This document shows, piece after piece, positions 1-44,693 of a stretch of DNA of 64,000 bases. Source of the stretch: an uncultured Verrucomicrobiae bacterium (GTDB taxonomy: Bacteria > Verrucomicrobiota > Verrucomicrobiia > Limisphaerales > Palsa-1400). The stretch is taken from assembly GCA_963702845.1 (NCBI GenBank), contig OY969763.1:1600001-1664000 (forward strand), given 5' to 3'. Position 1 is the first letter of the stretch. Every line of letters begins with the position of its first letter. The notes under the pieces are model-generated. The model ran no database searches and had not been told where the DNA came from. It saw only the letters and a program-made list of their open reading frames with translations. Position numbers and translations under genes: made by a program.

Positions 1-1089
1 TACGGCATCATCGGCGGAGCCCTTGAAGCCGTCGAAAAGCTCGTCAAAAAACTATCTGCACAAAACATTGAACTGCGTTTTGTTTACGAAGCGGGTCCCT
101 GCGGCTTTGTCATTCATCGCTATCTTAAAAGCAAAGGCATCCAATGCGATGTGGTGTCGCCTTCGCTCATTCCCAAAAAGGCTTCCGACCGGGTGAAGAC
201 TGATCGGCGTGATGCCGAGCAACTGGCCCGTCTTTATCGGGCGGGAGAACTGAGGGCCATCTACGTGCCTGATCAGGAGGATGAAGCTATCCGCGATTTG
301 ATCCGGGCCCGCACTGCGGCGGTGTGTGACCAGCGCCAGGCCCGAAATCGTTTGAAAGGCTTTTTGTTGCGACTGGGTTTTCGTTACAGCGGCAAGACCA
401 GTTGGAACGATGCGCACAAGCGTTATCTCTCCGGCTTGCTCATGCCGCAACCGGCGCAGCAAATCGTCTTTCAGGAATGCATTCATACGATCGACGACGC
501 CAGCCAGCGACTGGAACGACTGACTCAAGCAGTGGAAAACTCTTTGTCGGGCTGGAAATGGGAACCGGTGGTGCGCGGGCTGATGAGCTTGCGTGGGGTG
601 CAAGTGCTCAACGGGATGACTTTGGTGGCTGAGGCTGGGGACATGACCCGCTTTACTGAGCCGCGGCAGCTGATGAGTTTTTTTGGACTGACTTCCTGCG
701 AGCACAGCAGCGGCGGAAAACGCAGCCAAGGTGGGATTACTAAATGCGGCAACACCCACTGCCGGCGCGTCCTGACCGAAGCGTCCTGGCATTACCGTCT
801 CAAACCGCAGGTCAGCGAGGTCATGCAAAAATGACAGGAAAAACAAAGCAAAGAAGTCCGCTTGATCGCATGGAAAGCTCAACAGCGACTGCATAAACGG
901 TTCCGCTTCCTATCGGTTCGTAAAAAGAGCGTCGTGGTGGTCACTGCCATTGCGCGTGAACTGACCGGCTTTGTCTGGGCCATCGCCTGCCAGATCAAAG
1001 CGCCGCAAAAACCAGCTGCGCCGGAAATTATCCGGACCTGCCGCGGCCGCGTTTACAAACTGAATCCAACCCGAACTTATAAAAAATAA
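1..1089 (+). pseudogene. IS110-family (DEDD) transposase/recombinase, 5'-truncated by the window edge and interrupted by an in-frame TGA at 832-834
   Basis: Frame 1 is open from base 1: YEAGPCG, PSLIP, KTDRRDA (RuvC-like DEDD) and GLTSCEHSSGG...GGITKCGN (Tnp serine loop). The same frame resumes after the stop as QEKQSKEVRLIAWKAQQRL...AIARELTGFVWAI. Confidence 0.93.
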
Positions 1090-1247
1090 CATTTAAGAAT
1101 GAAGTGGCACGAACCGATTATCAGCAAACCAACTGCTGATGAGCACGTGAGCCGAAGCGCTATCGCGCCAGCTCTCGCTACGCTGCCGCTGCGCTCACCC
1201 GGTCGAATCGCTGGGCAAAACCGAACAAATAAAAAAACTTTAACTTT

Positions 1248-1472
1248 GCAGTGGATTGATGAGTTGGCAGAGAGCAGCTCGGTTAGGCGAACCCTCGTGA
1301 GTGTTAAGAGGAAGTTCCTTGCGAACGAACCCTCGTGCCTAGAGAGAGGAAGCGCCGCGACTCGAACCGTGGTCAGGTCGATAAGTCAGGTCTTCAGACC
1401 CGATGAACTCACGCATATCAGCAGGATCAACCGTCGTTGATTGCTGCTTCTGCCAACTCAACAGTCCATTGC
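1248..1472 (+). ncRNA. Candidate IS110 bridge/seek RNA
   Basis: 1248-1278 (GCAGTGGATTGATGAGTTGGCAGAGAGCAGC) is near-perfectly complementary to 1443-1472, enclosing internal hairpins. It lies in the IS non-coding end. Confidence 0.65.
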
Positions 1473-1483
1473 TCAATGTCAGA

Positions 1484-1564
1484 CGGTGAGTGGCGCCGGG
1501 CCACAGACGTCCGATATGCAAACAGAGCGCGCCACCGGCGTCCACTCCACTGCGCTCGTTAGGC
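1484..1564 (-). mobile_element. attC-like integron recombination site, truncated by the IS110 insertion
   Basis: On the minus strand it begins with inverse core GCCTAAC (RYYYAAC), overlapping the ORF stop codon. Arms AGTGGAGTGGACGCCGG and CCGGCGCCACTCACC pair with two extrahelical bases. The terminal GTTRRRY is replaced by IS sequence. Confidence 0.7.
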
Positions 1565-2107
1565 CAATGGTCCGCCTCTGTATCCAAAATACTCAAAACA
1601 ATTCGTCTCCTCTGAAGTCTCGACCTCATCGTCCTGAAATGCGTTCAGACGCTCATCGGGATTCTTCAACAATCTACGGGCAGCAACGACTTCGGGGTGT
1701 TGAAGAAATCGCTGTACCGCGGCGTGAACAAGCCGGTCAGCCTCCTCAGTAAACATGCCGAACTGCTGCGGCAGCCTATAAGCTCTCACTGGCATTAAGA
1801 AGCTCTTGAGAATCGCAGCATATAGCCTGTCTCGAACTGCTGTATCTCCCAGTTCCCCATGCTTTGCATAGGTCTTATCCAGCGCCGTCAAAAACTGTTT
1901 CAACGCGCTTCTGATAATCCGAGTCTTTTTATCGTAAGCAACGCGCTCCTTATCGCGTCGCTTCTTGAGAGGCTTTTCAGCAATCTCAATCGACAATTTC
2001 ATACTGAAAAGCAGTTTGAGTTTCTCATCGTCGGTCTTAGCCTTCGACAATCGCTCAAGCAATTCACCTAGTTCCGTTATGCGCTTCCTGAGGGGCTTAG
2101 CGCTCAT
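1559..2107 (-). CDS. Hypothetical 182-aa protein, putative integron cassette ORF
   Basis: Clean ORF. ATG lies 3 nt after a GTTAGGC core site and TAA lies inside the GCCTAAC inverse core. Confidence 0.75.
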   Translation of the reverse strand: MSAKPLRKRITELGELLERLSKAKTDDEKLKLLFSMKLSIEIAEKPLKKRRDKERVAYDKKTRIIRSALKQFLTALDKTYAKHGELGDTAVRDRLYAAILKSFLMPVRAYRLPQQFGMFTEEADRLVHAAVQRFLQHPEVVAARRLLKNPDERLNAFQDDEVETSEETNCFEYFGYRGGPLA

Positions 2108-2110
2108 GTG

Positions 2111-2147
2111 GCCTAACTATGATTATGCGACGAGGTGTCGCGGTAAT
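2111..2147 (-). mobile_element. Core recombination site GTTAGGC within an attI-like or degenerate attC site
   Basis: Minus strand reads GTCGCATAATCATAGTTAGGC immediately before the cassette ATG. Imperfect palindrome at 2122-2147; no matching inverse core. Confidence 0.5.
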
Positions 2148-2347
2148 TTTGATATACGAACGGTTGGTTCATATCGGTTGAGGAGACTATTGTTCTGCTG
2201 CCGTTGCCGATCAAGCGCAACAAAACGCATCTCTTCGCCGACGTGATCGACCGCCTGCCGCACGAAAAAGTAAATACCACGGTAAGTGTCCGCGCTTGGT
2301 TAAGGATGTGGATATGTGTAGGACGTGATACCTGCTTCGAATGCAAA

Positions 2348-2842
2348 CTATTTCCTTGCTGACAGCGGCAAGGCCGATTCCTGCAAGAGTGCGCAGAGTT
2401 CAAACGGCTCGGGAGCGGCCATCAGATTGGCCAGGTCGTAGAACCAAATTGTGACCATATTTTTGAGAGCAGCCGGCTGGTAATCCCCACCTATTTTTCC
2501 CGTCACGAACCTCACTGATGCGAAGATGGACCAGCCGCCTTCTTTGGAGTCGAACTCCTCGCGGTTCAAAACAAATTTTGCGAGGTTTGCCTGTCTGTTG
2601 ATCTTGCTCAGGTAAGCGTGTATGGCGCTGGCTTTTTTATCGCGCCGGTTCATCGGTTTCGCCGCGAGCATCGTGCCCAGTTGCAGGTAATATGGATTTA
2701 CCAAAACGTGACTGCGCAACGGCATCTCCGCATGAAAAATCTCGAACTCTGTGCCTTTAAGATCTCGAACCGTGCAATCGGCGGCGCGAATAGTGGACTT
2801 GAGGCGCGCAAGTTGGTTGGGACTCAGCTTCGGTTTTGGCAT
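2348..2842 (-). CDS. Hypothetical 164-aa protein (possibly YbjN/T3SS-chaperone-like fold)
   Basis: ATG-started ORF with protein-like composition. The fold guess is weak. Confidence 0.65.
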   Translation of the reverse strand: MPKPKLSPNQLARLKSTIRAADCTVRDLKGTEFEIFHAEMPLRSHVLVNPYYLQLGTMLAAKPMNRRDKKASAIHAYLSKINRQANLAKFVLNREEFDSKEGGWSIFASVRFVTGKIGGDYQPAALKNMVTIWFYDLANLMAAPEPFELCALLQESALPLSARK

Positions 2843-3010
2843 AGATTGGATTCAGCATGAATCAGTCTCTCCTGCGTTTTCAACTCATTCTGATTCGGTT
2901 ATAATCGGTAGCGGGAGGTCAGAGTCGCCGGGGGAGGATGCCGATGAAGAAATAGATGAACTTTTTGACTCCTGCGTCGCGCTGTCGTGAAACTTCGTTT
3001 GAGGGCTTTG

Positions 3011-3179
3011 ACCCAGGGTAGCGCCCCGCTGCCCTCCGCAACCGTGGGCTGGAGGCTGCAACTCCTTTGGAGTTGTGAAAATGGACGGGGTTCAATCGTC
3101 GCTACGCGACGAAAATTCTTTTGGCTTTCACGGTCCCTGGGATGAATCCCACGGCTGCCTTCGGGAACCGCTACGCGGT
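3011..3179. repeat. Cluster of REP-like extragenic palindromes
   Basis: Hairpins CAACTCC-TTT-GGAGTTG (3059-3075), TCGTCGC-TAC-GCGACGA (3096-3112), TGGGAT-GA-ATCCCA (3138-3151) and ACCGC-TAC-GCGGT (3167-3179). Confidence 0.65.
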
Positions 3180-3198
3180 GCTCCATCGGAACCCTTTC

Positions 3199-4278
3199 TT
3201 ATTGGGGCAGCTTGCCCTGCTTAAAACTCTCCAGCGCTTGCGCGAGCTGGTCTTTGATCCCTGGCTCAGCCCCGCCCAAGGCCTCGGTCTCCAGTTGGAT
3301 GGCTCTCTCTTTTTTGCCTTGTAGGAACGCGAGGCGAGCTTGGGTGTGGAGGAATTCAGGCTCTGGTGCTTTCAATAGGGTGACGGCGCGTTCCATGAGC
3401 AAATTTGCCGTGTTGAGAATAACGTTATTGGTGGGGTTCCGATTGGCTATGGTCCGCGCTATGCGGTTCTGCACATACGGATTATCGCTGTTTTCATCGC
3501 TGAGCTGCATCGCCACCTTGCTGGCAGCGTCGAAGTCTTTCTTGCCCATGAGGACGGTGATGCGAAGGCATTGGGTGACGGGTTTTTTTTGAGGAAAAAT
3601 TTTGTCCAACTCGTCGATTTCCTTCATCGCCTTGTCCCACTGCTTGGTTTTCCAGGCTTGTTTGCCCAATTCATTGTGTGTTTCCCATGCTTCGGATTTG
3701 GTTGGTAACGCTTCCTTCTCGAGTGCCCGCTTCTTTGGGTCGAAGGTGTCTGCGAGAAGATGATCGATGATTTTCTCGTCCAGGTCATTGGGGTGACCGA
3801 TGAAGGCGATTTTTCCCTGTTTATCGATGACGAATGCTATTGGAATACCTTCTTCCGCGGGATTCAGCCAGGTTTCCACCATCTTTCCAAAAAACTTGTT
3901 GGTCACACCGGTACCATCATCAAGCGCAACGCGGTAGGTCATTAAGTCGCCCATTTGTTTTATGAAGGGTTCAACGCGTTTCACGTCTCCCTGCTTGGTG
4001 TTCTGGCCGATGACAACGACTCCCTTGTCCTTGTATTTATTATGGAGTCGATTCAGGTGTGAAATGGCCTCTTTGCAAGGAGCCCACCACGTGGCCCAGA
4101 ATTCGACGATGTAAATTGTCCCTGGTTTGAATTCCTTGACCGGTTCGCCCTGCACCCATTTTGAAACGTAAAGTTTCGGAGCTGCGTCTCCTTCACGGAG
4201 CGTGGCCGCATTGGTCGAAAGAATGGTGGCGGTGAGTGCCGTCAGGGCGGCACACCGGATTATGGCTTTTAGCTTCAT
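3199..4278 (-). CDS. Secreted TlpA/ResA-like redoxin with a C-terminal helical (TPR-like) region; active site reads WxxC
   Basis: Signal peptide, GDAAPKL, IVEFWATWWAPC and GIPIAFVIDKQGKIAFIGHP. Confidence 0.85.
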   Translation of the reverse strand: MKLKAIIRCAALTALTATILSTNAATLREGDAAPKLYVSKWVQGEPVKEFKPGTIYIVEFWATWWAPCKEAISHLNRLHNKYKDKGVVVIGQNTKQGDVKRVEPFIKQMGDLMTYRVALDDGTGVTNKFFGKMVETWLNPAEEGIPIAFVIDKQGKIAFIGHPNDLDEKIIDHLLADTFDPKKRALEKEALPTKSEAWETHNELGKQAWKTKQWDKAMKEIDELDKIFPQKKPVTQCLRITVLMGKKDFDAASKVAMQLSDENSDNPYVQNRIARTIANRNPTNNVILNTANLLMERAVTLLKAPEPEFLHTQARLAFLQGKKERAIQLETEALGGAEPGIKDQLAQALESFKQGKLPQ

Positions 4279-4455
4279 TGGGCAAACAGGGAATTGGTTG
4301 GTATTATCATGCATCTGGCATCGCTGTGTAACACCCTAGATTGAGGGTGTATGAACGTGGTCGTGCCGCTGTTATGGTGACAGTGTTCCACCCGTTATAA
4401 CCTTATAACTAAATCACAGCGGCACTGTGCCGTTAAGCGAAAACCAAACTACATT

Positions 4456-44362: not shown

Positions 44363-44693
44363 AATTCGGTGTGACGGCGTCTGCGCTGGCTATAATTTGT
44401 ATATATTCACATCGACGTATCCGCAGGAAAAGTTTTTTCTGTTTGGCCTCCGCAACTCTGTGGTTTCCGATCCGATCCCTAAAGTTCGCCCTCCATCACG
44501 GCGGATTCTTTGTGGACGTCCAGGCCATTGTGGTCGACGGTTTTCTTAAGGCGCGACAAGTGCCTCACATATTGCGGACGGGCCGGCACACGCCGAAAAC
44601 CCACGCTAAACCGGGATCAAATACCTTTTGATTTTTTCGTTCGGCCACAGGGCTTGGGCGTAGCTCACGTCTCGAACTAATTCTGACCAAATC

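Follow-up and report, generated by a model that had tools for sequence, protein, structure and literature searches.

An IS110-family element of the YEAGP clade in the R′ box of attC sites, with a predicted downstream guide RNA

The window, a stretch of 64,000 nucleotides from a Verrucomicrobiae genome, opens inside an IS110-family element that abuts the remains of an integron attC site. The genome holds three copies of this element: copy A, at the edge of the window, and copies B and C elsewhere. The features are listed below in window coordinates unless stated otherwise; negative positions lie to the left of the window.

-238 to 1483 (genome 1599762-1601483), + strand: element copy A, delimited by its left end and by alignment of the copies
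1 to 1483, + strand: in-window part of copy A; compared with the intact element (1787 bp) it lacks 65 bp at its right end
1 to 1089, + strand, starting at -92: DEDD/serine transposase gene with a YEAGPCG motif (393 aa in the intact copy C)
1286 to 1446, + strand: predicted RNA of bridge/seek type within the 3′ non-coding region, a target-binding loop followed by a donor-binding region
1297 to 1305, + strand: right-target guide (reverse complement AACACTCAC), from covariation, predicted to pair with AAC and spacer of the attC R′ box
1335 to 1343, + strand: left-target guide, from covariation, including GCCTA (RYYY-A of R′)
1369 to 1377, + strand: candidate right-donor guide, complementary to the left end of the element, weak covariation
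1414 to 1421, + strand: candidate left-donor guide (CATATCAG), with the sequence of the circle junction between right end and left end, small covariation
1483 to 1484, no strand: deletion scar, placed by copies B and C, the homologous locus L173 and contig X1-6
1484 to 1564, - strand: attC remnant, with the L′ arm from 1484, R″ at 1558-1564 and R′ destroyed
1559 to 2107, - strand: cassette ORF of 182 aa, its stop codon inside R″
2111 to 2160, - strand: attI-like site at the head of the array, with a 19-nt core
Genome 98459-96673: element copy B, with full right end
Genome 2836284-2834488: element copy C, intact, with full right end

The remnant retains features by which the accessible text of PMC5027507 defines attC sites, namely an R″ box, paired L boxes and extrahelical bases. 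The R″ box reads GCCTAAC on the minus strand (1558-1564), and in the predicted fold the arm beyond it pairs with 1484-1500, leaving two extrahelical bases, T1541 and C1547/1548, 6 bp apart; a first reading made from the letters alone (the sequence-only reading) had correctly described this core and these arms. The AAC triplet of R′ is deleted at copy A, and is retained with a 5-nt spacer in a homologous attC of another genome (L173 in G019). The folding energy of the remnant is ordinary (z -0.05 for 1470-1566, with about 10% of 500 shuffles as stable), and its arm-pairing score of 10 lies at the 99th percentile of the scores of 400 random AAC sites, in a search that was not identically anchored. 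This anchored arm score was used in place of a first heuristic attC scan, which was insensitive (13 matches genome-wide). Of the 23 matches to a pattern for this attC family, most were due to chance and a few represented homologous attC arms, with an intact AAC only in L173. The attC of L173 (about 2300-2451 of G019:C446) is preceded by only an 8-nt match to the right end of the element, which is possibly the footprint of a lost element.

The 182-aa cassette ORF has no Pfam or NCBIfam match. The 19-nt core of the attI-like site has 21 matches in the genome with up to 2 mismatches, and none of the three IS copies is located in the attI-like site. Further cassettes were predicted to the left, and indeed six more attC-like sites are found there, at about -999, -1476, -1821, -2288, -2494 and -2956. 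The corresponding stretch (L003, genome 1592000-1599760) has six further cassettes, among them one glyoxalase-family gene and one encoding a 211-aa protein. The latter has no Pfam match and carries near its C-terminus what we take to be a VPEP sorting-like motif. A search of this genome (a single contig, 89.8% complete) with the IntI model TIGR02249 gave no match over the cut-off, and such a match is present in 7 of 40 relatives; on this result the array is CALIN-like, with no sign of the IntI gene of a complete integron. A thioredoxin-like protein gene (3199-4314, minus strand) has a ResA-like match below cut-off, and its CxxC-type motif reads WWAPC, without the first cysteine.

The three copies share the left end AGACCAT-ATGGCT. 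At the right, copies B and C have a TTGACA box, AGCCAT and ATC, followed by the AAC flank; the right end before AAC in these copies and in relatives reads TTGACA...GCCATATC. The intact element is 1787 bp long. Extensions of 7 nt on the left and 3 nt on the right lie outside the inverted repeat (AGACCAT/ATGGCT ... AGCCAT/ATC), as in the IS1111 family, but the subterminal inverted repeat in this 7/3 register is 6 bp, short of the about 11-13 bp typical of IS1111; that of ISSso6 is about 13 bp. The empty sites read GAAT/AAC for copy B and GTCT/AAC for copy C, and the left flank of copy A is GCCT. From these flanks, the insertion point is the R′ box of attC on the bottom strand, RYYY/AAC, two bases from the integrase crossover, which is placed between A and C in the available sections of PMC5027507 and PMC7439510. 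Copy C lies in a complete attC (arm score 10), and copy B in an R′/L′ half-site (arm score 4) for which no partner arm was found. At the window the element is on the plus strand and the cassette on the minus strand, confirming the antiparallel orientation noted earlier, which is also that of IS1111-attC elements.

The left end was considered as a mini-attC and rejected, since the feature is not conserved among relatives. No relative of the element was found in viral contigs. Two degenerate left-end relics of related elements occur in the genome, one within the window (44495-44650, minus strand) with a trace of the first transposase codons, and a second at genome 1159666-1159761, preceded by GCCTA. 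Seven other IS110-family transposase matches lie at genome positions 442519, 1729971, 2186551, 3666306, 4071630, 4307662 and 4397021; six of the seven share a 391-aa frame, with 29% identity to the YEAGP transposase studied here.

The element at the window had been taken to be inserted directly at 1483/1484, a claim that the other copies overturn. Past this point copies B and C run on into a conserved, normal right end, and so does contig X1-6 (independent run X1), which parts from copy A exactly at 1483; 1483/1484 is therefore, by alignment of the copies, a secondary deletion scar and not the insertion point. Missing at the scar are at least 65 bp of the right end (TTGACA box, inverted repeat and terminal ATC) and, by analogy with L173, about 8 bp of attC, comprising AAC and about 5 nt of spacer. 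Because the visible junction is a secondary deletion, the left flank of copy A does not rebuild the complete attC expected there; of the core, it has just the RYYY part, GCCT. A search of sequencing runs listed no RNA run carrying the stretch and none with half of it, and the contigs of four runs contain no piece spanning the copy A junction, a circle or an empty site; since no read spans the junction, it may include a local assembly error.

The scar might also exceed 73 bp, if the element became joined to a different, upstream attC with loss of one or more cassettes, or if the junction is an aberrant product of recombinase or integrase. We consider this rather unlikely but worth keeping in view, and it concerns only the origin of the scar. 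The spacer originally targeted is no longer visible, and in one related locus (L040) an element cut off within its own left guide, inside the guide RNA, is joined directly to the AAC of a complete attC. On the other side, the minimal deletion suffices for the data, and an integrase crossover at the IS-internal GCTCAAT, a candidate that we rejected, should have left AAC rather than AAT at the junction. In another related locus (L068), the last 9 nt of the right end are present as a tandem duplicate before AAC. The original proposal, a complete element inserted directly in the right arm at 1483/1484 with the rest of attC in the left flank, can be dismissed: IS sequence does meet L′ exactly, and GCTTAAC followed by GTCAGA left of the window mimics a rebuilt R′ with a duplicated core, but this GCTTAAC lies within the element in all three copies and was rejected as the missing R′, and copies B and C, which with relatives have 65 more bases before AAC, already refute it.

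Copy A carries a second lesion, in that TGA at 832-834 replaces R309, a residue that is invariant in 16 of 16 aligned sequences and is kept in copy C. The transposase gene of copy A is thus, as read, a pseudogene. The same TGA is found in copy B, so the nonsense mutation is probably older than the split of A and B.

Related loci were drawn from genomes of the order (301, of which 17 have a match at E<=1e-60), genomes of the phylum (401, of which 7 have one), a genome collection (18 loci), metagenomes (the best 80 of 584) and plasmids (20 regions, taken for relatives and references). The resulting 142 loci with a transposase match are redundant, include the genome's own copies and form a sample biased toward the query. 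The RNA profile described below matched in 112 of the 142, and 71 provided a non-redundant right junction. The right flank starts with AAC in 43 of these 71 insertions, and RYYY left flanks are present at 22 of the 34 AAC sites that have a left flank, compared to 6 of 26 others. An attC hairpin score of at least 9, applied to flanks of at least 100 nt (four AAC flanks were too short), was reached in 24 of 39 AAC flanks but in only 11 of 400 random AAC sites. The 15 flanks below this score, copy B among them, include some damaged or variant attC sites, some half-sites and one non-attC plasmid site; since these insertions fail the score, targeting would appear to read the sequence of R′ and spacer without requiring a whole attC. 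Many YEAGP relatives target sites other than attC R′. Two different elements (L025 and L031, G224) have near-identical right flanks and different left flanks; the shared right flank is a collapsed site, with GTTAGGC only 7 nt past AAC.

The 3′ non-coding region of relatives contains a conserved predicted RNA of about 160-180 nt, whose consensus fold (39 sequences picked from 103 distinct ones) has two outer stems, an internal loop and an inner stem. The stems of the target loop covary, with two-sided changes in 9 of 12 pairs, and 96.8% of paired cells are compatible with pairing, compared to 41-52% in slid controls, for a structure derived from the same alignment. A single-sequence fold is no stabler than shuffles (z -0.02), and Rfam gave no match at E<=1 in window positions 1-4000. 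The loop sequence changes with the flanks of the insertions. On its 5′ side, 5.13 of 7 positions are complementary to the right flank (2.82 shuffled, n = 71), and on its 3′ side 3.12 of 4 are identical to the left flank (2.17 shuffled, n = 60). Within AAC sites, the five positions past AAC also match (3.17 of 5 versus 2.16 shuffled, n = 42; 3.28 versus 1.95 when collapsed to 25 distinct guides). In each of the three uncollapsed comparisons 0 of 5000 shuffles were as high, although kinship among the relatives, which are not independent, makes these permutation P values overstate the significance. Covariation of the candidate donor guides is small (7.07 versus 6.69 of 8, and 4.26 versus 3.92 of 7), and the right guide of this element itself is a poor match to the two targets that can be seen, with agreement at 2 of 7 positions for copy C and 4 of 7 for copy B.

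The element thus has the non-coding RNA with guides for target and donor that is characteristic of IS110, the RNA being predicted and the guides identified by sequence covariation. It lies in a long non-coding region downstream of the transposase gene, with the top-strand guide before the bottom-strand guide, an order that the accessible text of PMC11187229 reports for IS1111-type seekRNAs. The TTGA box is conserved in right ends, and the -10 at the junction is weak in this element. On the covariation of guides and flanks, it is this downstream RNA, overlooked in the sequence-only reading, that explains the targeting. We consider it very improbable that protein recognition or the hairpin fold of attC determines the choice of target instead, with incidental RNA matches. 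Copy C, which is in a full attC despite a 2/7 match of its spacer to the right guide, is consistent with such a choice, but guides also follow flanks in the 28 non-AAC relatives (e.g. L048, L052, L099 and L126), they follow flanks past the triplet within AAC sites, and several insertions are in half-sites without a partner arm.

The transposase scores 197 bits against NF033542 (cut-off 140), exceeds the cut-offs of PF01548 and PF02371, and has RuvC and serine domains in comparison with the IS621 and ISCro4 structures (PDB 8wt6 and 9t56; E about 1e-6). Among named elements, it is 52% identical to that of ISSfr2 and 46% to that of ISSso6, and its closest relatives with named records are from Verrucomicrobiota. 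The YEAGP motif is present in seven ISfinder entries (ISSso6, ISSfr2, ISEc45, ISCARN28, ISPye17, ISSph13 and ISVisp2) in the available part of PMC11187229 (supplement 6). In our trees, which were built without ISCARN28, the transposase falls outside the IS1111 clade (100% SH-aLRT for that clade), and its 393 aa compare with 330-350 aa for that group.

IS1111-attC elements (ISKpn4, ISPst6, ISPa21, ISPa25 and ISPa62) resemble the element studied here in their DEDD transposase, a guide RNA in the non-coding region downstream with the same strand order of guides, the absence of a target duplication, 7/3 terminal extensions starting ATGG, and antiparallel insertion into attC. That the element belongs to their group is nevertheless hardly tenable. 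Its transposase is of an unrelated clade (21-23% identity to ISKpn4, ISPa21, ISPa62 and ISPa25) with an EAGP rather than an EACG motif, its inverted repeat is 6 bp rather than about 12 bp, and a topology test (47 rows, on a quick tree without a mixture model, with three long branches excluded) rejects a joint clade of the R′-targeters and the IS1111-attC elements (AU p 6.6e-6). The insertion position also differs. Mapped copies of ISPa62, ISKpn4 and ISPa25 lie between L″ and the spacer, at the gene-proximal end and 6 nt from the GTT of R″, and split the hairpin, in agreement with the insertion ‘near the 5′ end’ given in the accessible text of PMC3001079, whereas the YEAGP lineage inserts at R′, 2 nt from the crossover, and leaves both arms and AAC/GTT. 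An ISPa21-family copy lies on a plasmid after dndB, outside attC (L162); the ISPa21 copy was used in the tree only, and not in the position comparison. Phylogeny and insertion position (R′ versus L″) both set this YEAGP-clade member of the IS110 family apart from IS1111-attC.

The earlier suggestion of a separate attC-targeting lineage therefore holds as regards its distinctness from IS1111-attC, but probably not as regards a single lineage. R′-targeters are spread over several supported subclades and require 5 label changes; a tree with all of them in one clade is rejected, though weakly (AU p 0.031), so that they are probably not one clade. Either R′ was an ancestral target that was lost repeatedly or it was gained repeatedly; the tree root is too weak to choose.

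Taken together, it is highly probable that a YEAGP-clade element of IS1111-style architecture was guided by its RNA into attC R′, and that copy A was then hit by a nonsense mutation and a deletion. By analogy with work on IS621 and IS1111 (available sections of PMC11208160 and PMC13626964), the RNA would be expressed, a circle formed and the reaction catalysed by the transposase. Once the ends are joined in the circle, the TTGACA of the right end would lie beside a weak -10 of the left end, and the two may form a junction promoter. The donor loop of the RNA would pair with the circle junction, while the target loop would pair with both strands of attC R′, the left guide with GCCT-A and the right guide with AAC and spacer. 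The RuvC/serine recombinase would then insert the element at RYYY/AAC, possibly with one A as a shared core and always in the orientation opposite to the cassette genes, such that the element ends up just inside the next cassette. In copy A, the nonsense mutation and the deletion of the right end with AAC would be secondary events after insertion. Movement after the split of A and B would require the copy C enzyme in trans, and the lesions of copy A would leave that element unable to move and the cassette at 1559-2107 without a working attC.

Other members of the YEAGP clade share the catalytic motif, the ends and the downstream RNA scaffold (46-52% identity for ISSso6 and ISSfr2), and the accessible text of PMC11208160 predicts a bridge RNA for ISCARN28; the ISSfr2 and ISSso6 copies examined differ in having other guides and non-attC sites. 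IS621 and ISCro4 likewise have a two-loop RNA, with four guides for target and donor, and RuvC and serine domains, but in the available portions of PMC11208160 and PMC13626964 their RNA comes from the left end, its left guide precedes the right one and the core is CT, whereas the YEAGP element has its RNA in the right end, with the right guide first and at most one A shared. Group IIC-attC introns are likewise mobile and parasitic on the bottom strand of attC, and run antiparallel to the cassettes; they are retroelements with another mechanism, and the example cited in the accessible text of PMC3001079 is at the gene-proximal end and separates the gene from its attC. In the literature searched, which comprised few subscription papers and text without figures (a target logo could be in print), we found neither insertion at R′ nor attC targeting by YEAGP-clade elements described, and no experimental study of the right-end bridge RNA scaffold. 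The mechanism is already known; the R′ target position is new relative to the literature searched.

Insertion at R′ is predicted to affect the site. In 19 intact insertions with both flanks, outer R-box pairing drops from 2.84 to 0.42 of 4 when the element end replaces RYYY, and the predicted probability of the crossover pair drops from 0.75 to 0.35. Intact insertions keep AAC/GTT, both arms and the bulges; triplet, stem and bulges are the essential attC features listed in the available part of PMC7439510. Since outer pairing is lost while triplet, arms and bulges are kept, intact insertions probably weaken the site. At copy A the triplet is gone, and this attC is most likely dead. Thus, the idea that the element immobilises cassettes is plausible for copy A, which has lost AAC, and unproven where the insertion is intact. 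As no IntI was found, the array would in any case be static unless an integrase were acquired. Even for IS1111-group elements, the experimental evidence on effects on integrons is limited, according to the accessible text of PMC11616780.

In formal terms the element is added to the downstream cassette, with which it could move. In flanks inspected by eye, we saw no sign of cassette-borne movement (an element beside attI, or the same left flank with different right flanks). It is conceivable, though on balance we doubt it, that attC R′ is an old, widespread and possibly ancestral YEAGP target, that the element is carried by integrase as a passenger of the downstream cassette between arrays and genomes, and that its variable right guide co-evolves with the attC spacers of its hosts. 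If so, insertion two bases outside the crossover would spare AAC/GTT of the upstream hairpin, unlike insertion of the hairpin-breaking IS1111-attC elements.

Copy A itself is ordinary debris. The wider set of insertions points to an independent aiming of RNA-guided recombinases at integron sites, beside the integrase cut, at a target (R′) that is the one motif common to all attC sites. The 71 guide-target pairs define the guide positions of the right-end bridge RNA scaffold. The R′ position predicts another effect on cassette shuffling, a weakened site and possible hitch-hiking rather than a split hairpin, and the effect of attC-targeting IS on integrons, little tested so far, becomes directly testable.
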